From positions 5,267 through 69,266 of the forward strand of contig JAFLSW010000010.1 in the NCBI GenBank assembly GCA_022510725.1: 64,000 nt of DNA, written 5' to 3'. The notes under the pieces were generated by a model that saw only the letters and a program-made list of their open reading frames with translations, did no database searches and had not been told where the DNA came from. The DNA comes from Lachnospiraceae bacterium (GTDB lineage Bacteria; Bacillota; Clostridia; Lachnospirales; Lachnospiraceae). Below are positions 1-64,000 of the stretch, in pieces; position 1 is the first letter of the stretch, and every line of letters starts with the position of its first letter. Position numbers and translations under genes: made by a program.

Positions 1-1027
1 CGATGCCCATGGATTCCAGGGTGGCGCTTACCGTATGCTTATGGGAGGAGCAGGCGCTTCCTGCGGAAACACAGACTCCTTTTTCTTCTAAAGCATGGAG
101 CAGTACCTCGCTTCGGATTCCGGCAATGGATGCGCTGACAATATGAGGGGCCCCCTCTTCATCCTGCGGACCGTTGATATAGATCTGATCCATCTGCCCC
201 AGGCCTTCTATAAAACGCTTTTTCAGTCCATACAGCCTTTTGGTATCTTCATCCAGGTCCCGGTAGATCAGTTCTGCCGCTTTGCCGATCCCGGCCACAC
301 CGGGTACATTTTCCGTGCCGGAACGATAGTTTTTCTGCTGACCGCCCCCAAAGATCATAGGCTGGATCTTTACCTTATCGTCTATATACAAGAATCCCAC
401 GCCCTTGGGTCCGTGAATCTTGTGGCCACTGACGGAGACCATATCGATGTTCCATCTTTTGGGGAAAAGTCTTAACTTGCCAAAGCCCTGTACTGCATCC
501 ACATGGAAAAGGATGCGGGGATCGATCCGTTTGATCAGAGCGCCGATCTCTTCTATGGGCTGAATGGTACCCACCTCGTTGTTGACATACATAACGGATA
601 CCAAAATGGTATCTCTACGAATAGCCCGCTGCACATCCTCCGGATATACCCTGCCCAAAGAATCCACAGGCAGATAGGTGACCTCAAAGCCCTGCTCCTC
701 TAAATGCTCCATGGTCTTTAACACCGCAGGATGTTCGATGCGGGTGGTGATCAAATGCCTTCCCATGCGGGCATTGGCATAAGCCGCTCCCATCAACGCC
801 CAGTTATCCGCCTCCGTTCCCCCGGAGGTATAAAAGATCTCTTTTTCCTGGACCTTTAAAATGCCTGCAATGGTTTTCTTGCTGGCCTTTATATATGATT
901 CGGCTTCCACACCCTTTAAATGCATGCTTGCCGGATTTCCGTATTCTTTTGTCATGATCTCTGCAACCAGACTGGCAACCTCAGGGTAAGCCCTCGTGGT
1001 TGCAGAATTATCCAGATATACTTCCAT
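1..1027 (-). CDS. iscS: Cysteine desulfurase (IscS/NifS family), runs off the left window edge
   Basis: Absent from the ORF track because it is truncated. Manual translation from the ATG at 1027 gives MEVYLDNSATT..., FYTSGGTEADN, SGHKIHGPKG (PLP lysine) and SAGSACSS (catalytic Cys). Confidence 0.9.
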   Translation of the reverse strand, partial: MEVYLDNSATTRAYPEVASLVAEIMTKEYGNPASMHLKGVEAESYIKASKKTIAGILKVQEKEIFYTSGGTEADNWALMGAAYANARMGRHLITTRIEHPAVLKTMEHLEEQGFEVTYLPVDSLGRVYPEDVQRAIRRDTILVSVMYVNNEVGTIQPIEEIGALIKRIDPRILFHVDAVQGFGKLRLFPKRWNIDMVSVSGHKIHGPKGVGFLYIDDKVKIQPMIFGGGQQKNYRSGTENVPGVAGIGKAAELIYRDLDEDTKRLYGLKKRFIEGLGQMDQIYINGPQDEEGAPHIVSASIAGIRSEVLLHALEEKGVCVSAGSACSSHKHTVSATLESMGI

Positions 1028-49719: not shown

Positions 49720-50703
49720 TTATAAAACAACCGATGTTTCAAAGATTGCAGGATAATATCTATAAATCTTTTGGTAGGTCTCTATTTCCTCCTTTAACAA
49801 AAATTGAGCTTCTTTAATTGGATATGTTATATTAGGCATGTTGCGATTAAGTACTGTTAATTCCTTATATGTAAAATTAGGAACAGTAATATCATAGGGA
49901 GTATACGAATCATTATAGAATTCTAATTCTGAAAAATTACAATTAGCATATTTTTTAGCATCTTTATTTTTATATAATATCCATCCCATTGTTAGCATAA
50001 TTGCTTTTGAATCATTATATTTAAAATATACTAATTGCTGACATTGATATTTTTCATTTTCAGACAATATTGTCCGATTTCTTTCTAATATTTTATTCCT
50101 TACTACCATATCAAACATCTTATTAGTTGTTTGATATATTTTTTCTTTTGACATATCCTTAGGCTTGATACATTTAACAAGTGCTTCGTTATCTATTCTA
50201 GAGCAATACATTTTTAATTTTTCATTGGGAGATTTTTGCTGAAATTCATTTCCCAAATCCGAATTGAAGCTTATAAAAATGACACTTCCCGAGTCGACTT
50301 TTCCCACACAATTCTCAACATCTTGCAATTGCTCGCCAGTTATCCCACCATCATAATCTAACCAAATAATATTTTTTTTGTTATTCCACTTCAAACGAGA
50401 ACTATTTAATATATCAGATGCTTTACCAAACATCATGTTAATACAATTAAAGGGTTTATTAAATTCAAATCGTTCCTTATTCTTTTTATCTGAATTTATC
50501 TCCATACTGTACATCTCATTTATCCCAAATTCTTTATGGAACAAAGAAAAATCAACAAAATATTTAGCTCCCATTCCAATATATCTATAATTACATATTT
50601 GATCAAAGGCAACTAGTCTTGAAATCATTTCACACATCATTCGTCTTTCAATACTTTTACATGGCCGTATATTATAATTGACACTGACACTGCTTCCAGA
50701 CAT
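49720..50703 (-). CDS. Putative class I SAM-dependent methyltransferase-like protein
   Basis: YIGMG (motif I-like), SME acidic residue and IIWLDYDG (motif IV-like). The ATG overlaps the upstream stop (TGATG) behind GGAGG. Confidence 0.55.
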   Translation of the reverse strand: MSGSSVSVNYNIRPCKSIERRMMCEMISRLVAFDQICNYRYIGMGAKYFVDFSLFHKEFGINEMYSMEINSDKKNKERFEFNKPFNCINMMFGKASDILNSSRLKWNNKKNIIWLDYDGGITGEQLQDVENCVGKVDSGSVIFISFNSDLGNEFQQKSPNEKLKMYCSRIDNEALVKCIKPKDMSKEKIYQTTNKMFDMVVRNKILERNRTILSENEKYQCQQLVYFKYNDSKAIMLTMGWILYKNKDAKKYANCNFSELEFYNDSYTPYDITVPNFTYKELTVLNRNMPNITYPIKEAQFLLKEEIETYQKIYRYYPAIFETSVVL

Positions 50704-51995
50704 CAAATTTCCTCCATTTCACAATAATATTCAAAAAGCTTTTCTCCTACTACCTTATTAGTCTTTTCCCCCATATTGTCTTTAACTTTATCCACTTCTA
50801 CAGTTGGTTTTGAAAAAGTTATTTTGGTCATTGATATTTTCTGTTCTGGTTCTATAATATTAAAATCTACATTTTGATTGATCTTAGCAATTCTACTATA
50901 TGTTAGTTCTTCCTTTTTCGCTTTACATATAAAATCTAAGTCTTTTAAATCATTAACATCATATTTTCTTTTCAGTTCATCTATTAATTTAAAAATTTGC
51001 ACCATAGCCTCATGCATTTTCTGGGTTGCTATAATATATAATCTATTTGAGGTATCGACCCCTGTTTTAGTCGTATTCCATGGCAAAGCCAATAAATCTT
51101 TCGACTCAAAATAAACATATCCCCTAAACTCAGCTAAGCTATTGTGGTATATTCGAGTATTATTTCCCCATCCGGTTAAGCTGGTTTTATCTGCATATAA
51201 AACCAGTCTTCCATTACAATAAATGTACCACCCGGCTTTATTGGGTTCTCCCTTTTCAGTAATACCCGCTATAATAGTAATAGTTCCTTGGCTGTCTTTA
51301 ATTTTAAAATTATATGGCTGTATATTTTTGGATTCCAGTAACTTTTCTTTTCCATAATCAATTGTTATGCCATTAACTTCTATTCTTAGTCCATTCTCTG
51401 CTTCAACCGTCCTATACTTTTGTATATAATCAATTAATGAATTTATGAAGAGTTCGCTTTCGAATTTTGCTGTTATATCATCATTTAAATCTTCTACAAT
51501 TATCTTTGTTCCAGTTTCTGTATTCTTTAATCCGGTTTCTGCTTTCTCAAATTGAAAATTCCATTCATCATCTTTCAGCCATTTATTAACATCAACTTTC
51601 AACACAAAATGCTCTGTATTTGTTGTAGAAATTATCTCAAATTTATTCCCCAATTTAAAAAGCGTTCGCTTCATACCTATACCAAAAATACCTGTAAAAA
51701 AGGCTGCTGTTCCCTCCTTGCGACTAGAAGGCCTGCCAAATTTAAATGCATAAGTTCGAGCAGTCTCAATATCAATTCCTCCACAGTTATCTTCAATAAT
51801 AAATTTATCACTTGACATCTCAATCCTAATAAATAAATCATTATAATTTTTATTTGGCCGAGTTCTTTTAGCCCCATCAATTGAATTATCAATCAGTTCA
51901 ACAATTGCAGGTTTCACATCAATATCTCTTGTTAACATATAAATAAAAAAATCCTTTGTTGGGCTAGCATCAACCTTCTTATTTTGTGTTTCCAT
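50703..51995 (-). CDS. GHKL (MutL/MORC-like) ATPase
   Basis: ELIDNSID, DNCGGI, GIFGIGMK and GTKI Bergerat-fold motifs. Confidence 0.85.
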   Translation of the reverse strand: METQNKKVDASPTKDFFIYMLTRDIDVKPAIVELIDNSIDGAKRTRPNKNYNDLFIRIEMSSDKFIIEDNCGGIDIETARTYAFKFGRPSSRKEGTAAFFTGIFGIGMKRTLFKLGNKFEIISTTNTEHFVLKVDVNKWLKDDEWNFQFEKAETGLKNTETGTKIIVEDLNDDITAKFESELFINSLIDYIQKYRTVEAENGLRIEVNGITIDYGKEKLLESKNIQPYNFKIKDSQGTITIIAGITEKGEPNKAGWYIYCNGRLVLYADKTSLTGWGNNTRIYHNSLAEFRGYVYFESKDLLALPWNTTKTGVDTSNRLYIIATQKMHEAMVQIFKLIDELKRKYDVNDLKDLDFICKAKKEELTYSRIAKINQNVDFNIIEPEQKISMTKITFSKPTVEVDKVKDNMGEKTNKVVGEKLFEYYCEMEEI

Positions 51996-52992
51996 TTGTT
52001 ATCCCTTCTTTCGCTACTCTTTTTTGTTGTATATATCTACGATAGGCTCTAGTATATTCATAAGACTCTTTAAAAACATTATTTACTGCATTAAACAAAG
52101 CGGGTTCATATTCTTTCATAACATGTAATTCTTCTTCAAAGTTCCTTGCAAAGGGGCACCCAGCACAACCCGTTCTTTTTAATCCATATTCACTATAACA
52201 TCTACTATGATCCACATTATAATGCTCTTCATATATTTTTTTTGTTTCATTTAAATACCAAAATATTGGTCTATATTCATCGCCATCGTCATTAGTAGAA
52301 AAACAGGTTTTATAAGCTGATCGCCTTGCTCCACCTTCTGATTTTCTCACTCCATATATATTCAAATCAAATTTTTCTTGCTTTCTAAATTTTAATGCAA
52401 CCTTTTTTTTTGCATAATAGCAACACTTATTTGATATTTTAAAAGTGGGTGGATTTGTAATCATAAATTCTTTTAAATACTGATTATACGCTATATTAAA
52501 ACTACTTTCTTTTCCAGTTTCTGACTTCTGAAAGTCATTACACCACCACCGCAAAGCGGCTCTACATTGCGGATACCTTTGATATAATACATCAAACGAC
52601 TCCTCTTCCCACTGGAAATTATGTTTCTGTAACCTTTCAATCCATTCACTAACTTGCTTAGAAATAAATGGCTGTCCATATGTTTTACAACAATGAGGTA
52701 TTGATTTTTCTGCTCTAATGCGTTCAACATGTACTCCATACTTGTTCTCCAAATAGCTTATATGCTCTTTTGTTGCATTAAACTCAAGCCCTGTATCAAA
52801 AAATGCATATGTGATTTTATTAGATTCATCAAATTTTTCGCAAAGATCAATTAATATATCACTATCACTCCCACCACTGATTGAACATAGTATTTTATTA
52901 TACTGTTTTAGCTTTGCATGAGTAATTACAATGGAATCTGTAATTAATTGATTTTTTTCAGGTGCAACTTTTATTATTTCAAATAATTCCAT
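51979..52992 (-). CDS. PAPS-reductase family (PP-loop) protein with Fe-S cysteines
   Basis: SGGSDS PP-loop, KCC, GVRKSEG and RTGCAGCPF motifs. Confidence 0.85.
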   Translation of the reverse strand: MELFEIIKVAPEKNQLITDSIVITHAKLKQYNKILCSISGGSDSDILIDLCEKFDESNKITYAFFDTGLEFNATKEHISYLENKYGVHVERIRAEKSIPHCCKTYGQPFISKQVSEWIERLQKHNFQWEEESFDVLYQRYPQCRAALRWWCNDFQKSETGKESSFNIAYNQYLKEFMITNPPTFKISNKCCYYAKKKVALKFRKQEKFDLNIYGVRKSEGGARRSAYKTCFSTNDDGDEYRPIFWYLNETKKIYEEHYNVDHSRCYSEYGLKRTGCAGCPFARNFEEELHVMKEYEPALFNAVNNVFKESYEYTRAYRRYIQQKRVAKEGITNGNTK

Positions 52993-57684: not shown

Positions 57685-58971
57685 TTACCCAATTGCTTCC
57701 AACGCCTGCGCCAGATCCGCAATCAAATCCTCTTTATCCTCCAAGCCGCAGGAAATACGAACCAATCCTGCCGGTACACCCGCCTCTTTTAACTGTTCTT
57801 CATTCATCTGCCTGTGAGTGGATGTCGCCGGGTTCAGGCAGCATGTTCTGGCATCTGCTACATGGGTTTCAATGGCTGCTAATTTTAAATTCTTCATAAA
57901 GACCTCTGCAGCAGCTTTTCCGCCTTTTAACTCAAAGGACACAACACCACATCCACCATTGGGAAGATATTTCTGTGCACGCTCATAATACTTATCCGTT
58001 TTCAGTCCCGGATAATTAACGCAATCTACTTTGGGATGGGCAGCCAGGAATTCTGCCACTGCTTGTCCGTTCTCCACATGTTTGGGCATTCTTACATGCA
58101 GGGACTCCAATCCCAGATTCAAATAAAAGGCATGCTGAGGTGACTGGATGCAACCCAGATCACGCATCAACTGCGAAGTTGCCTTTGTGATAAATGCACC
58201 TTCTTTTCCAAACTTTTCTGCATAGGTGATTCCATGATAGGACTCGTCAGGAGTACAAAGTCCCGGGAATTTATCAGCATGTGCCATCCAGTCAAATTTA
58301 CCGGAATCCACAATTGCCCCACCAACTGCCGCACCATGTCCATCCATGTATTTTGTTGTAGAATGTGTCACGATGTCTGCACCCCATTCAATGGGTCTGC
58401 AATTAATCGGCGTGGGAAATGTATTATCTACAATAAGAGGAACGCCATGCTCATGAGCTGCTTTGGCAAACCGTTCAATATCCAATACCGTAAGCGCAGG
58501 ATTGGCAATGGTCTCACCAAATACTGCCTTAGTATTATCCTGAAATGCAGCCGCAAGCTCTTCATCCGTACAATCCGGTGAAACAAATGTAGCCGTGATT
58601 CCCATTTTTGCCATGGTAACCGAGATCAAATTAAAGGTTCCACCATATATAGACGAGGATGCCACAATATGATCCCCTGCCTCACAGATATTAAATAAAG
58701 CCATAAAGTTGGCTGCTTGTCCGGAGGATGTCAGCATAGCTGCGCTACCGCCTTCCAATGCCGCGATCTTAGCCGCCACCATATCATTGGTAGGATTTTG
58801 CAGCCTGGTATAGAAATATCCGGATGCTTCCAGATCAAACAGTTTCCCCATATCTTCACTTGTCTCATAGCGAAATGTAGTAGACTGCACAATAGGAATC
58901 TGCCTGGGTTCTCCATTCCCCGGTGTATAACCTGCCTGTACGCATTCTGTTCCGATTGAGTGTTTGCTCAT
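57685..58971 (-). CDS. metY: O-acetylhomoserine aminocarboxypropyltransferase
   Basis: YTRLQNPT, SSGQAA, VDNTF and HSTTKY motifs; host-like GC. Confidence 0.88.
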   Translation of the reverse strand: MSKHSIGTECVQAGYTPGNGEPRQIPIVQSTTFRYETSEDMGKLFDLEASGYFYTRLQNPTNDMVAAKIAALEGGSAAMLTSSGQAANFMALFNICEAGDHIVASSSIYGGTFNLISVTMAKMGITATFVSPDCTDEELAAAFQDNTKAVFGETIANPALTVLDIERFAKAAHEHGVPLIVDNTFPTPINCRPIEWGADIVTHSTTKYMDGHGAAVGGAIVDSGKFDWMAHADKFPGLCTPDESYHGITYAEKFGKEGAFITKATSQLMRDLGCIQSPQHAFYLNLGLESLHVRMPKHVENGQAVAEFLAAHPKVDCVNYPGLKTDKYYERAQKYLPNGGCGVVSFELKGGKAAAEVFMKNLKLAAIETHVADARTCCLNPATSTHRQMNEEQLKEAGVPAGLVRISCGLEDKEDLIADLAQALEAIG

Positions 58972-59047
58972 AATGATCTCCTTTTCCCTCACAAACTATG
59001 ATATTTCTTTCTTATATTACCATATCAGGGCCTATTTTTCCATAAAA

Positions 59048-59083
59048 TAATGGCAGTTTGAGATTGGTTTCAAACTGCTATTA
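59048..59083. other. 14-8-14 inverted repeat directly upstream of the recombinase gene (candidate recombination core site)
   Basis: TAATGGCAGTTTGA-GATTGGTT-TCAAACTGCTATTA with one mismatch, at the GC transition. Confidence 0.45.
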
Positions 59084-59165
59084 CTACATAATCCTGACCA
59101 TTTCATAGACAATTTCTAGACAGCCTATCATAATTATTAAAAAATACAAAGGAGAAAATTGATTT

Positions 59166-60092
59166 ATGAATACTTTAACAACTTATACTACAGATTATAT
59201 TGAATACTGCGAATGCAGAAAACATTTAGATCCAAAGACCTTAAAAGCATATAAGATCGATTTAAAACAATATAATGATTTTTGTTCTGATTTATCTGAT
59301 TGCTTTTCCAGAAGGACTGTGGATAAATTTATTACTTTTTTGCATAAGCAATATAAGCCGAAAACAATTAAACGAAAGATTGCAAGTCTAAAAGCCTTTT
59401 TCCACTATATGGAGTACAAAGAATTATTAGATGAGAATCCTTTTACCAAACTGGACATTCGTTTTAGAGAAGCCAAACTTTTACCCAAGACAATTCCTTT
59501 TCATTCCATCCAGACATTTCTATCAACACTATATGCACAAAAAGAGTTAGCAAGGTCCCAATATCAGCTGCAGTGCCGTATTCGGGACATTGCCGTCATT
59601 GAATTGCTATTTGCTACCGGAATTCGGATATCAGAACTATGTTCATTAAAACCCGAAGATATAGATTTAGAAAACCATACTGTGCTAATTTACGGAAAGG
59701 GTGCTAAAGAACGAATTTTACAAATCGGTAACCCTGAGGTTATTTCCGCACTATGTCTGTATCAAAACACTTTTCAAAAAGAGATATCTGATTGTGGTTA
59801 TTTTTTTGTAAATAGACTGCATCACAAACTATCTGACCAATCCGTTCGTTATATGATCAATCACTATGCAGAGCTATCCGGCATTAACCTGCACATCACA
59901 CCCCATATGTTCCGCCATTCATTTGCAACCCTTTTATTAGAGCAGGATGTTGATATTAGATATATTCAAAGAATGCTTGGCCATAGTTCCATTAGCACAA
60001 CAGAGATTTATACTCATGTATCTAATACAAAGCAGAAGGAGATTTTAGTACATAAGCATCCTAGGAATTTGATGGAGGTGAATAAAGAATAA
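59166..60092 (+). CDS. Tyrosine recombinase/integrase (XerC/D-like)
   Basis: TGIRISEL (R), PHMFRHS (HxxR), LGH and TTEIYTH (Y) catalytic residues. Confidence 0.93.
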   Translation: MNTLTTYTTDYIEYCECRKHLDPKTLKAYKIDLKQYNDFCSDLSDCFSRRTVDKFITFLHKQYKPKTIKRKIASLKAFFHYMEYKELLDENPFTKLDIRFREAKLLPKTIPFHSIQTFLSTLYAQKELARSQYQLQCRIRDIAVIELLFATGIRISELCSLKPEDIDLENHTVLIYGKGAKERILQIGNPEVISALCLYQNTFQKEISDCGYFFVNRLHHKLSDQSVRYMINHYAELSGINLHITPHMFRHSFATLLLEQDVDIRYIQRMLGHSSISTTEIYTHVSNTKQKEILVHKHPRNLMEVNKE

Positions 60093-60125
60093 TTAGAAGT
60101 TATCTGTTGAATATGTATTAGGAAT

Positions 60126-62129
60126 ATGGAAATAGTGAAAATTTTAAAATTAAATGAACTTTGTGGTATAAAAAACCAATTATATTCGCAGCAACAATAT
60201 ATTGTTTCAGAAAAAGAAAAGGGTGTAATTAATAATTTTTTTGATATAAACTCATTGTTTTGGTCTCAAATATTTAACCCCAGCGCCGTATATAATTTAG
60301 TTGAAAGAGCTAAAAATGAACTCAATAATGATAATTCACCGAAAATAAAAGCTATATTGAAACAACCTCAAATTTTTCTAAAAACAGTATTTATTGCGCT
60401 TAAAAAGCTAGAAGGCTATGTCAATGAGAAAGAACTTTTTCAAAGCTTAGAATCACTTGAAATTTTATGTCATCTTCATACAAAGCTATATTCAAGACCA
60501 CATACTTTAACATTATCTCAAGGTTATATTTTAAGTAAATTTTCTGCATTGGATATGGAAAGAAATTGTCTGTTACCATTTTATAATCCTTATTTAGATT
60601 TTATAAATAAAAAAGTAATGCCCGTAATATTAAGTTATGAACCTTCAATATTAATAATGACAGGAAGACCAAATCTTGCGTCCTTTACAATTGCAAAATT
60701 AGTTAGGTATAAAATACCAAACATTTTTATTATTGCAGGTGAGCATGAATCCGATTATTATTCATTATTTAAAATTCATAGTTTATTAGAAAAAAATACT
60801 GCCTTCTTTTCAGTGTACAATTGTGCCATTATATCAAACTATCACAATGCAATTTCAAAAATAAAAAAATGGTATCTAAACCAATCAAATAATGATTTAA
60901 ATAATATTCCAGGGATTATCTATAGTTTAGATAATGGTAGTACTATAATTAAAACCAATATTCAATCAACATCTTTAACAAATAATAGTGCCCCACTTCA
61001 TTATACAGATAGATCATATGTATATAATATAAAAGTATTTTCTCAAAATCATTGTTATTGGAACAAATGCAGTTTTTGTGGAATTAATAAAAAATATAAT
61101 GATTTAGAAAATCAAGAATGGAATTATACGGAAGCCAGCTTAAAATTAGAATCTTTATATAAAAGAGGAATAAATAGAATTTGGTTGCTAGATGAAGCAA
61201 TACCACCGGTAGTTTTATTCAAACTTGCCACATGCATCATAGATATGGACATTCGTATTTTATGGCATGTAAGAACAAGAATTGAGCATCAATTTATTAA
61301 TAAAGTATATGCAAAAACCTTATTTAAAGCAGGATTAAAACATATTTTATTTGGATTTGAAAGCGCATCAAACCGAATCTTACAATTGATGAGAAAAAAT
61401 TTTGAGAATAATAATTATCTTGAAATTGCGGAAAAGATTGTTGAAAATTTCACTTCTATAGGAATACAAGTTCATTTTACTGCAATTTTGGGATTTCCTA
61501 CAGAAACAAAAGAAGAACGTGATGAAACAATTGATTTTTTACATTATTTACATAGAACATATTCTTTATTTTCGTATAATTTAAATATTTTTTATTTAGA
61601 TATTGGGAGTGAAATATATCATAGGTGGGAAGAATTTGACATATCAACACTTTCTTTTCCGTGTTCACCAAAATACTATTTAGAAAATCATTTAGATTGG
61701 CTTAATTCAGTTTCTTCAAAACAGACTGACATAATTTATAATGAACGAGAAATTTCTATGAAACAACAATTTGAATGGTACCCTGAAGATTCCTTAATAA
61801 AACCGAGTATATTTTTCTCCTTTTGGGAATATAGCAGATATACCTTATATAGCAATGACCTAAAGCATAATAATTTAAGTTTCTATAGTAAACAACCAAT
61901 TATATTATCTTCCGATGTTGCGTTATGTAAGATGGAACATGATACATGGATGCTTTATCATTTATCTAATCATCATTATGTAGTTGGGGGGAATATTTTA
62001 TTGGATTTGGTTAATTCCAGTAAGAATAAGGAATGTTTTTGTACATTTATAGAAAAATACGATCAACCTTATAAAGAAAAGGCTAAGAATTTGCTTATAC
62101 AATTAGTCCAAAAGGAGTTTTTTTTATAA
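60126..62129 (+). CDS. B12-binding-type radical SAM protein with a probable C-terminal RiPP recognition element
   Basis: CYWNKCSFC cluster motif, a degenerate B12-binding region (EPSILIMTG...IFIIAGEH), LDEA, ILFGFESAS and LGFPTET motifs, and a winged-helix-like last ~75 aa. Confidence 0.75.
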   Translation: MEIVKILKLNELCGIKNQLYSQQQYIVSEKEKGVINNFFDINSLFWSQIFNPSAVYNLVERAKNELNNDNSPKIKAILKQPQIFLKTVFIALKKLEGYVNEKELFQSLESLEILCHLHTKLYSRPHTLTLSQGYILSKFSALDMERNCLLPFYNPYLDFINKKVMPVILSYEPSILIMTGRPNLASFTIAKLVRYKIPNIFIIAGEHESDYYSLFKIHSLLEKNTAFFSVYNCAIISNYHNAISKIKKWYLNQSNNDLNNIPGIIYSLDNGSTIIKTNIQSTSLTNNSAPLHYTDRSYVYNIKVFSQNHCYWNKCSFCGINKKYNDLENQEWNYTEASLKLESLYKRGINRIWLLDEAIPPVVLFKLATCIIDMDIRILWHVRTRIEHQFINKVYAKTLFKAGLKHILFGFESASNRILQLMRKNFENNNYLEIAEKIVENFTSIGIQVHFTAILGFPTETKEERDETIDFLHYLHRTYSLFSYNLNIFYLDIGSEIYHRWEEFDISTLSFPCSPKYYLENHLDWLNSVSSKQTDIIYNEREISMKQQFEWYPEDSLIKPSIFFSFWEYSRYTLYSNDLKHNNLSFYSKQPIILSSDVALCKMEHDTWMLYHLSNHHYVVGGNILLDLVNSSKNKECFCTFIEKYDQPYKEKAKNLLIQLVQKEFFL

Positions 62130-62151
62130 AAAATATATAAGGAGGGGTTTA

Positions 62152-62331
62152 ATGTATTTAGAGCATAGAGATGCAGAGATGACATCAAAATTTGAGTTTG
62201 GCGTTAATTATTATTTAGACATAGCTAATACATCGATTGCTGATGCTAAAAATGGCGGTGGCGGTGGTAGCAATGGAGGCGGCTCTGGTGGCGGTGGCGG
62301 CGGTGGCCAAACCGGTGGTGGAAATAAATAA
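62152..62331 (+). CDS. 59-aa Gly-rich peptide, putative RiPP precursor (not in the ORF track)
   Basis: AAGGAGG RBS at 62139-62145. Translation MYLEHRDAEMTSKFEFGVNYYLDIANTSIADAKNGGGGGSNGGGSGGGGGGGQTGGGNK; starts 22 nt after the radical SAM stop and is followed by a terminator. Confidence 0.8.
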   Translation: MYLEHRDAEMTSKFEFGVNYYLDIANTSIADAKNGGGGGSNGGGSGGGGGGGQTGGGNK

Positions 62332-62381
62332 CCGTAAGAAAACCACAGAATAAATTTCTTTAAAACTTCTTTTGGATTAAA

Positions 62382-62409
62382 AAGGCGGTTCATTTTTTGT
62401 AACCGCCTT
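62382..62409. terminator. Bidirectional terminator closing the int-rSAM-peptide unit
   Basis: AAGGCGGTT-10nt-AACCGCCTT between convergent genes. Confidence 0.7.
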
Positions 62410-62435
62410 CTATATTTAATAAACAGATATAAATA

Positions 62436-63878
62436 TTAATGAATTGTATACTCCATTGACTTCACACGCTTAGTGTATTGCTTATCAAGTTTAAAAGAAA
62501 AAAACTTTCCAAATGACACTTCTAGATGCTTGATAGAATTAACATCTTCTTCAACAGTTCCGGGTTTATTATTTACTACACGATTGTCCGTTTTTTCTTT
62601 GAGACTATTCTTTAAATCAGAAAGTGATTTTGTTCCTCCCAATGAATAGTAAAAGATTTGACATACTGTTAATATTTCAGGCAACATTCCGCATAACGCA
62701 ATAATTACATCGTAGGGTGAATGATGCGTTAATTGTATGGAAGTGTCAACATTAGGCGCAATTTCATGAATGGTTACCTCGATAGTTTTAAGTAACTTAT
62801 ACATATCTAAATCACTTAATGATTCAATATCTGTTTTTAAAAGAATCTGAGCTTGCGGATTATCATATGGATTGTCAACTAAAATGTGTTTAATATTCTC
62901 AATATATAGATTATAGCTTTTCCGTAAATAATGTGGAAAATTATCCGGAACAATTAATTGTTTAATCATCACATAAAAATCTCTTAATTGCTTATCTGAG
63001 CAAATATTAAATTTTACTATTAAAGAACATAAATCCTGTAATGCAGCAAAATCGCAAGCTGTTATTACGCTCTCAAATGCAAAAGGCAGTATCTCTAAAA
63101 TTTTCTCTTGTTCATTAAAAGCAATATATACATTTAATATTTCATAAAATTGTTGAGTTTCAAAATAATAAGGAATTAATTCTTTTAATTTGGGTAAAGC
63201 CGCATTAAGCGACATTTCTTCTTCGTTTCCATAGGCAACTTTAACATTTATAGCATTTTGTTGAAGAATCTGAATTAATCCATAATTTCTAGCCAAATCT
63301 AAAATATGGAATGTTACATTATTAAATATTACTTTATCAAAAGTACAATAGCGTACTCCTACTTTTCTTAGATCCATCTTTTCGAAAACACAATTTTTAA
63401 TATTTGATTGTTCAATCGAAGAGTGTTGCATTATACAATTTTTAAATGTTGTGTTTTCAATTTGCATTTGTCTAAATGAACATCCATTAAACTCAATGTC
63501 GGTAAATGCTGAATTTATAAAATTCCCAAAACTAAAATTACAACTTAATATCTTATGATTTTTATTACTTGAACAAAAATTAGAAGAAAATATATCACAA
63601 TACCTAAAATCACAATTATTAAAAAAACAGTTCACAAATTGACAATTATAAAATTTTGATAGTGCACCATCGGAAGAATTGAACTGTGATTCTATAAATG
63701 TACAATTTCTATATATTGGTTTACGAATCAATGCACCTGGAAATTCAATACCAAATGTCTGGTCTTGAGCTTGTTTTGGAGGATAAGAGTCTAATGTATA
63801 TTCTGTTGTAAGTAATGATTTAAATTCTTTAAAAGAATGTTCATAATTTAAATATTTTTGATCTAAATACTCTGGCAT
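62436..63878 (-). CDS. Pentapeptide-repeat protein with a C-terminal helical domain
   Basis: Long run of (C/S/T)xFxx repeats (e.g. CQFVN CFFNN CDFRY, CSFRQ, TTFKN, CVFEK, CTFDK); AGGAGG RBS. Confidence 0.85.
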   Translation of the reverse strand: MPEYLDQKYLNYEHSFKEFKSLLTTEYTLDSYPPKQAQDQTFGIEFPGALIRKPIYRNCTFIESQFNSSDGALSKFYNCQFVNCFFNNCDFRYCDIFSSNFCSSNKNHKILSCNFSFGNFINSAFTDIEFNGCSFRQMQIENTTFKNCIMQHSSIEQSNIKNCVFEKMDLRKVGVRYCTFDKVIFNNVTFHILDLARNYGLIQILQQNAINVKVAYGNEEEMSLNAALPKLKELIPYYFETQQFYEILNVYIAFNEQEKILEILPFAFESVITACDFAALQDLCSLIVKFNICSDKQLRDFYVMIKQLIVPDNFPHYLRKSYNLYIENIKHILVDNPYDNPQAQILLKTDIESLSDLDMYKLLKTIEVTIHEIAPNVDTSIQLTHHSPYDVIIALCGMLPEILTVCQIFYYSLGGTKSLSDLKNSLKEKTDNRVVNNKPGTVEEDVNSIKHLEVSFGKFFSFKLDKQYTKRVKSMEYTIH

Positions 63879-64000
63879 AACATCCTCCTATGTATCTTTT
63901 GGTTAGAAATAAAATTCAATGAAACAAAAACCAATAAACATATATTAAAACTTATATATAACACACAGTTTATAAAATTTCATGGTTTAATAATACATAT

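Follow-up and report, generated by a model that had tools for sequence, protein, structure and literature searches.

The locus and its genes

We analyzed a 64,000-nucleotide stretch of a Lachnospiraceae bacterium genome (hereafter, the window), whose right-hand end carries a cassette consisting of a gene for a radical S-adenosylmethionine (rSAM) enzyme, a gene for a 59-residue peptide with a glycine-rich core, and a convergent gene for a pentapeptide-repeat protein (PRP). Together these genes make up a segment of 3.9 kb (3.8-4.5 kb in the family as a whole) with inverted repeats at its ends and a gene for a tyrosine recombinase alongside. The initial annotation, made from the nucleotide sequence, had singled out the peptide as an open reading frame (ORF) hidden below the cutoff of the ORF track and had read its leader as an echo of McbA, the precursor of microcin B17. 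The features of the locus are as follows.

59166..60092, plus strand: Xer-like tyrosine recombinase, 308 aa (Pfam Phage_integrase, 7.5e-42; NCBIfam XerD/XerC, 238 bits, below the curated cut-offs)
60085..60120, unstranded: left inverted repeat, perfect over 60089-60120, the reverse complement of the contig end
60126..62129, plus strand: radical SAM enzyme, 667 aa, of predicted class-B (B12-domain) architecture (Pfam, NCBIfam, AlphaFold2 [AF2], Foldseek)
62139..62145, plus strand: Shine-Dalgarno (SD) sequence AAGGAGG of the peptide gene, 6 nt 5' of the ATG
62152..62331, plus strand: precursor peptide gene, 59 aa, with a leader (residues 1-34, KFEFGV at 13-18) and a Gly-rich core (residues 35-59)
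62382..62409, unstranded: GC-rich hairpin between the convergent units (fold -23 kcal/mol, z = -4.2)
62436..63878, minus strand: PRP, 480 aa (Pfam Pentapeptide_4 and related models, AF2, Foldseek)
63991..64000, unstranded: start of the right inverted repeat, which continues for 22 nt outside the window, up to the last base of contig C2

A conserved precursor gene behind the radical SAM gene

The ORF at 62152..62331 on the plus strand translates to MYLEHRDAEMTSKFEFGVNYYLDIANTSIADAKNGGGGGSNGGGSGGGGGGGQTGGGNK (59 aa) and starts 22 nt past the stop codon of the 667-aa rSAM gene. Its initial description, which credited it with a strong ribosome-binding site 6 nt before the ATG, a core with Gly-Ser sites and no Cys, and conspicuous Gly codons, proved accurate: AAGGAGG lies at 62139-62145, the core contains 18 Gly, 2 Ser, and 0 Cys, and the Gly codons are GGC or GGT within DNA of ~27-33% GC.

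Building a family from homologous loci, as had been suggested, was productive, with homologous peptides found behind homologous rSAM genes. The single rSAM sequence matched nothing among the genome contigs, and an alignment-based search was needed to find the loci. An rSAM gene followed by a same-strand ORF of 45-72 aa was present in 15 of the 16 evaluable distant genome loci and in all metagenome loci examined (L004, L008, L010, L041, L045, and others), in hosts belonging to the Lachnospiraceae, Acutalibacteraceae, Anaeroplasmataceae, and other Clostridia. The family peptides consist of a leader of 29-51 residues followed by 12-29 Gly and end in 1-4 variable, unconserved residues; many of the cores are pure Gly, without any Ser, Thr, or Cys. 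An ATG preceded by a GGAGG-type ribosome-binding site was found in every family peptide checked (17/17). The peptides of L017 and L032 carry a Cys on either side of the Gly run (ACG17CSGR).

The sole longer ORF at the peptide site is an antisense poly-Pro frame (62211..62393), longer by one residue, and the GGN run is itself a low-complexity, GC-rich repeat; both facts would suit an explanation in which the ORF is untranslated, being no more than repetitive DNA or the shadow cast by a poly-Pro gene on the other strand. In relatives, however, the antisense frame mostly has no ATG and never an SD sequence, and it is thus the antisense frame that is the shadow, as originally proposed. Furthermore, the ratio of nonsynonymous to synonymous polymorphism (pN/pS) of the peptide gene was 0.27, 0.25, and 0.09 in three close pairs, in which 6-12 of 16-24 Gly codons (30-50%) differ synonymously while the residue is still Gly. 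Because pN/pS is low and the Gly codons vary synonymously, selection acts on the protein rather than on a DNA repeat. Given also the universal start and ribosome-binding site and the retained leader motif (see below), we regard the untranslated alternative as extremely improbable. Judged by these sequence comparisons, the 59-aa ORF is a real, conserved, and previously overlooked leader-plus-core precursor gene under purifying selection, and the hidden gene of the initial annotation is thereby substantiated.

The leader is not that of McbA

The McbA leader given in the initial annotation is correct, with a 100% match to the annotated microcin B17 genes. The segment EFGVNYYLD of the window peptide is identical to McbA EFGVVLSVD at 5/9 positions, but alignment with the authentic McbA is insignificant (BLASTP E=48). 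A shuffle test restricted to the leaders returned p ~0.02 for the window peptide, which was hand-picked, and 0.1-0.9 for 16 other family members, and the window peptide was unmatched in NCBIfam and Pfam. The claimed echo of McbA therefore fails. Conservation of the EFGV segment fared differently at different depths: KFEFG[V/I/K] at residues 13-18 is kept in 5/5 nearest relatives, whereas the wider family has the motif E-φ-x-F-[D/G] instead (for example, IEVEFD, MEIKFD, SIEFDY, and LAVFDE). This motif is probably a recognition strand for the family's own enzyme. Accordingly, of the suggestion that the leader segment is read by a synthetase, one half survives, in that the conserved FEFG segment is a plausible recognition element, and the link to the McbA synthetase is unsupported.

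These data bear on a reading of the peptide as an McbA-like precursor of the thiazole/oxazole-modified microcin (TOMM), or linear azol(in)e-containing peptide, type, in which a McbB-type synthetase would read the EFGV leader, oxazoles would form in the core, and the resulting gyrase poison would be countered by a McbG-like PRP. The 5/9 match followed by a Gly run speaks for it, as does the adjacent pentapeptide-repeat gene, which is positioned as mcbG is in the mcb operon. The reading nevertheless already fails on its defining features. Leaders elsewhere in the family are dissimilar to that of McbA; YcaO (PF02624) is absent across the whole genome, in which control families were positive; no McbB/C/D-like or SagB homologue occurs in any cassette, and the window locus has no McbB/C/D-like neighbor. 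Since, in addition, the partner of the peptide is a class-B-type rSAM enzyme, oxazole formation at the Gly-Ser sites, as in B17, would lack an enzyme to perform it, and that part of the initial annotation is not upheld. With no Cys and often no Ser in the core, we rejected McbA homology and TOMM membership, the likelihood of which we consider negligible.

The enzyme has a class-B radical SAM methylase fold

The 667-aa enzyme matches Pfam Radical_SAM (PF04055) with 44 bits, and its cluster motif CX4CX2C (C307, C312, C315), non-canonical in its spacing, is invariant in the enzyme family. Matches to NCBIfam models were weak and sub-threshold (PhpK, HpnJ, ApyD, and rSAM_ocin_1, the last, TIGR03975, at 32 bits against a cut-off of 282), and sequence searching of the Protein Data Bank (PDB) returned generic rSAM-core matches only. 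Remoter relatives of the enzyme match models of B12-dependent rSAM methyltransferases, including the TIGR03975 model for C-methyltransferases of peptides that are made ribosomally and modified post-translationally (RiPPs), with up to 150 bits. The AF2 model (predicted local distance difference test score of 88, predicted template modeling score of 0.90) has as its best Foldseek match in the PDB MgmA (9ccb, E=1.8e-11), followed by OxsB, TsrM, AprD4, and CysS and, after these, MiaB/RimO, with the fold aligning to MgmA, OxsB, TsrM, and CysS over 426-575 columns. The enzyme is thus folded, according to the model, like the class B radical SAM methylases, which depend on cobalamin. At its C-terminus, residues 595-660 are modeled as three strands followed by three helices, a topology resembling that of a RiPP recognition element (RRE). 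The family comprises >200 unnamed homologues of ~665 aa, and about 50-60 full-length cluster representatives were found among 1.84 billion proteins.

Several larger proteins (P0243, P0244, P0249, P0261, and P0289; 1400-2300 aa) contain 3-4 tandem copies of a related rSAM core. In the distant relatives L021 (4608-8190) and L029 (6797-7912), a second radical SAM gene, of the SPASM type, is added; L021 also encodes an AMP-ligase, a glycosyltransferase, and a carrier protein and has no poly-Gly peptide.

MgmA, also known as QCMT, removes hydrogen from C-alpha and, in vitro, turns Gly into D-Ala (PMC13469106; PMC9401015), a conversion that the authors of the 2026 paper call unprecedented and inaccessible to synthetic chemistry (PMC13469106). 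Because a dedicated poly-Gly substrate sits beside an MgmA-like enzyme, repeated C-alpha-methylation of Gly would be the most economical chemical hypothesis by analogy, although we advance it tentatively and hold it to be less than an even prospect. Another radical chemistry might be at work instead, namely backbone cleavage, alpha-hydroxylation, C-C or C-N cross-linking, or formation of a small cofactor or signal, as in the PqqA/PqqE and MftA/MftC systems, with the PRP as receptor or scaffold. Enzymes of the class-B fold also perform ring contraction, cyclization, and dehydration (OxsB and AprD4, both among the top matches; BchE and HpnJ), the cluster spacing is non-canonical, and some relatives (L021, L029) add a SPASM-type enzyme. 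Cross-linking, however, would need side chains, which poly-Gly lacks; the residues beyond the Gly run are unconserved; and both the closest structure and the profile matches of the remoter relatives are C-methyltransferases, which makes these other chemistries rather unlikely in our judgment.

The pentapeptide-repeat protein, a probable dedicated partner

In the protein encoded by the convergent gene, a beta-helix of ~8 coils (residues ~36-191) is followed by an alpha/beta domain of ~215 aa specific to the family (192-410) and by a basic tail; a hydrophobic segment lies at ~390-410 (Kyte-Doolittle ~2.0). Foldseek matched the protein to AlbG, QnrB1, and MfpA, and it is 21% identical to McbG. 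Its C-terminal domain is confined to this architecture and to cassette-sized contigs, and the PRP and the enzyme co-vary, with PRP identities of 73%, 61%, and 27% where those of the enzyme are 63%, 49%, and 37%. On this comparative evidence, the PRP is probably a dedicated partner of the cassette. A role in immunity to a topoisomerase poison would be a fair analogy. The hairpin at 62382-62409, which is followed on the minus strand by a U-tract, is the terminator of the PRP gene and probably acts bidirectionally. In two loci from mouse Lachnospiraceae (L017, 2271-4865; L032, 2276-4864), an 864-aa leucine-rich-repeat protein precedes the rSAM gene and the PRP is absent.

The cassette occurs in both orientations between identical flanks

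The recombinase gene is read in the direction of the cassette and ends within the left inverted repeat, which contains its stop codon. Homologous recombinase genes abut the cassette in L004, L008, L010, L019, L020, L022-24, L028, L030, and L045. Inverted repeats of 22-198 nt bracket the cassettes in >12 loci (198 nt in L004, 110 in L042, 92 in L010, 67 in L045, 60 in L008, and 22 in L019 and L028), and the repeats share a 17-bp core, GATAAY-N5-RTTATC, which occurs at cassette ends in about 15 loci and at both ends in about 14, against, by our estimate, ~0.03 chance hits expected per locus. In the left repeat of the window the core reads AATAAT-TAGAA-GTTATC (60088-60104). The core spacer is identical within a repeat pair and different between loci. 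To our knowledge, the core does not correspond to any described site. Extra core copies with other spacers are found near the recombinase in L028 (269-3934), L027 (2025), and L019 (10561), one inverted pair of which brackets ~3.6 kb, and one recombinase may therefore serve several invertible segments.

Two independent pairs of near-identical loci were captured in opposite states. Between L019 and L028, the cassette is colinear and 99.5% identical, whereas the flanks are swapped and reverse-complemented (93-99.9% identity); L041 and L042 are likewise in opposite orientation, with 99.98% identity in the cassette and 100% in the flank. In mouse-gut metatranscriptomes (the L022 runs), contigs connect the 5' end of the rSAM gene with the opposite flank. 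These alignments show that the cassette occurs in nature in both orientations between identical flanks. In the window genome, the final base of contig C2 is the last base common to both possible junctions, and C2 and contig C29 overlap by 55 nt. Many family members sit on ~3.8-kb contigs that begin and end in repeats, and invertibility explains why so many do. Orientation cannot be phased from the Logan contigs of the Lachnospiraceae COE1 element, which are broken at the repeats. The L022 scaffold of the same organism duplicates the PRP/peptide piece, although the run depth is that of a single copy; the duplication probably arose when the invertible segment was scaffolded and was not used as evidence for two copies.

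On the enzyme side of the window, as in L019/L028 and L008, only 5-40 nt lie between the repeat and the start codon, and transcription must consequently enter from outside. It follows that the orientation would decide which outside transcript, that of the recombinase operon or that of the other flank, drives which unit. A sigma-70 promoter scan of 58900-64000 gave 36 matches against 34 expected from shuffles, and we claim no promoter there. On the other flank, a 56-aa ORF (MSEIVGRELKNWQDW...) at the start of C29 (L037, ~60-230, minus strand) points at the right repeat and the PRP gene and is a possible source of the outside transcript for the side away from the recombinase.

Genomic neighborhoods and the possibility of a defense function

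The cassette is accessory: among 200 other genomes of the same family, only 1 had even a distant, partial match, and a genome of the same genus had none. In the window genome it adjoins defense-type genes, with a pair resembling AriA/NsnB/PDC-M55A ATPases to the right and a candidate system at 49720-52992. The pair to the right is on C29 (L037, 2414-5068, minus strand), where a 506-aa AAA ATPase matches the NsnB, PDC-M55A, and AriA models (E down to 5.7e-50) and its 376-aa partner weakly matches PDC-M55B. This setting, the absence of an exporter and a protease, the sporadic and mobile nature of the element, and a weak resemblance of the PRP to the Hailong effector HalA would all suit an anti-phage or anti-plasmid defense module, with the modified peptide or the PRP as intracellular effector and inversion as phase-variable immunity. 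PADLOC, however, matched neither the PRP nor the recombinase and gave only a weak generic match for the rSAM enzyme. HalA was set aside as an identity for the PRP, the similarity being limited to the repeats and far under the cut-off (27.6 bits against 250; Foldseek rank 37). Elsewhere, the cassette is surrounded by housekeeping genes (in L010, by pth/mfd on one side and spoVG/glmU on the other) or lies near peptide-sensing regulators of the kind typical of bacteriocin loci. A defense function is accordingly unlikely in our assessment.

Other neighbors were recorded as well. In L028 (9563-11764, minus strand), two genes on the flank away from the recombinase are directed into the cassette, one for a subtilase (Peptidase_S8, 417 aa) and one for a protein of 282 aa; in the L019 orientation, both would share an operon with the rSAM enzyme and the peptide, which makes the subtilase a candidate leader protease. 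A group II intron reverse transcriptase (RVT_1 plus GIIM, 438 aa) lies between the peptide and PRP genes in one lineage (L041, 8341-9657; L042, 3650-4966), and transposase-like genes occur inside the cassettes of L022 (6999-7961) and L018 (7923-9365). Directly to the left of the recombinase gene in the window, an O-acetylhomoserine sulfhydrylase-like gene (57685-58992, minus strand) has 43-46% GC amid ~30% and marks a composition boundary.

A model for the cassette

We propose that the 59-aa ORF probably encodes the substrate peptide of an undescribed, RiPP-type cassette of rSAM enzyme, poly-Gly peptide, and PRP that is flipped by its recombinase. In the proposed mechanism, the acidic/aromatic strand of the leader (KFEFGV in the window) would dock on the RRE-like domain at the C-terminus of the enzyme, which would then abstract C-alpha hydrogens of the poly-Gly core, most likely for repeated methylation of Gly to D-Ala. 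Through such methylation, a soluble and flexible tail would become a segment that is hydrophobic and resists proteases, and the PRP would either protect the cell from the product or receive it. By flipping the cassette, the recombinase would swap the external transcripts that drive the enzyme and peptide on the one hand and the PRP on the other, giving heritable phase variation between production and protection. A bolder version, in which the cassette is a natural ribosomal route to poly-D-alanine-type (C-alpha-methylated) peptides and splits a clone into producers and protected non-producers, is speculative and on balance improbable; as part of it, producers would perhaps release the product by dying, since the cassette has no exporter. 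No description of such a system was found in the literature on poly-glycine, RiPPs, radical SAM enzymes, pentapeptide repeats, or invertible elements (invertons).

Several observations weigh against the substrate-peptide proposal or parts of it. Modification of the peptide by the rSAM enzyme is something that we infer, and the same holds for the chemistry and target of the product, the role of the PRP, and the purpose of flipping. No protease or exporter is encoded in any cassette, which leaves release and maturation of the product unexplained. The Pfam B12-binding model was unmatched on the enzyme, and AprD4, which fits the fold equally well, is B12-independent; the RRE-like topology is that of the AF2 model, Pfam PqqD being negative in 8 members. 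The repeat domain of the PRP is not markedly acidic (net charge +1, and between -8 and +3 in relatives), and in length the PRP exceeds McbG and Qnr more than twofold. Both orientations are known from relatives, the evidence from the window genome being circumstantial (a contig break exactly at the outer edge of the repeat), and the RNA evidence consists of assembled contigs of even depth, in which DNA carry-over is possible and which are too weak a basis for claims about expression. Finally, in loci with long repeats (198 nt in L004, 92 nt in L010), both units have identical upstream sequence inside the segment, and flipping may leave expression there unchanged.

If the proposal is correct, gut Clostridia harbor a new RiPP class whose core is essentially pure Gly, the one residue that offers an enzyme only its backbone C-alpha. 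The cassette makes a natural conversion of Gly to D-Ala (or to 2-aminoisobutyric acid) directly testable, and a reaction so far known only as an in vitro side activity of QCMT would then occur in nature. It is also a rare case in which the invertible unit is a whole biosynthetic-type cassette and not a promoter. The recombinase, with its compact core site of 17 bp, could be put to use as a genetic tool, the long PRP partner may point to the target of the product, and a recurrent assembly artefact, hundreds of orphan ~3.8-kb contigs in gut metagenomes, is explained.

Comparison with known systems

Microcin B17 (McbA precursor, McbBCD synthetase, McbG immunity protein) resembles the cassette in its architecture, with a small leader, a core with a long Gly run, and a pentapeptide-repeat gene alongside; the resemblance is one of architecture only, that between the repeat proteins being generic repeat similarity. 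Microcin B17 relies on a YcaO/E1-like/dehydrogenase synthetase, where the window cassette has a radical SAM enzyme, and on the McbEF exporter, of which the cassette has no counterpart. The 480-aa repeat protein with its extra domain and the invertible locus are likewise unlike microcin B17. More generally, the PRP shares the right-handed pentapeptide-repeat beta-helix of the topoisomerase-protecting proteins McbG, AlbG, Qnr, and MfpA, of which McbG and AlbG have their genes next to those of the toxins that they counter. These are compact proteins of ~180-220 aa with an acidic, DNA-mimicking surface, whereas the PRP adds its ~215-aa domain, a hydrophobic segment, and a basic tail and is near-neutral in charge.

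Among structures, the window enzyme is matched best by MgmA/QCMT, the B12-rSAM enzyme that methylates a Gln C-alpha in methyl-coenzyme M reductase and so acts, as is proposed here for the window enzyme, on a peptide C-alpha. The two are 14% identical in sequence, and MgmA, at ~420-450 aa, has neither the N-terminal helical domain nor the RRE-like C-terminus; its substrate is one residue of a large methanogen enzyme and not a dedicated poly-Gly peptide. The B12-rSAM C-methyltransferases of RiPP pathways (PoyB/PoyC type; TIGR03975; ApyD) share with the window enzyme the class-B architecture predicted for it, a peptide substrate encoded in the neighborhood, and possible iteration, but those known act on carbons of side chains, and poly-Gly is a substrate of none of them.

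As an invertible segment, the cassette has known counterparts in the G segment of phage Mu, with its recombinase Gin, and in the RecV switches of Clostridioides difficile. All are bracketed by inverted repeats, with the site-specific recombinase encoded alongside. As in the G segment, two opposed gene sets start at the segment ends, and orientation sets what an outside promoter reads; Gin, however, is a serine recombinase, and the cargo of the G segment is tail-fibre genes. As with RecV, the recombinase here is an Xer-like tyrosine recombinase of a gut Firmicute, and the extra repeat pairs suggest several targets. The RecV switches are promoter or terminator elements of 150-300 bp, whereas the cargo of the cassette is of the biosynthetic type and measures 3.8-4.5 kb.

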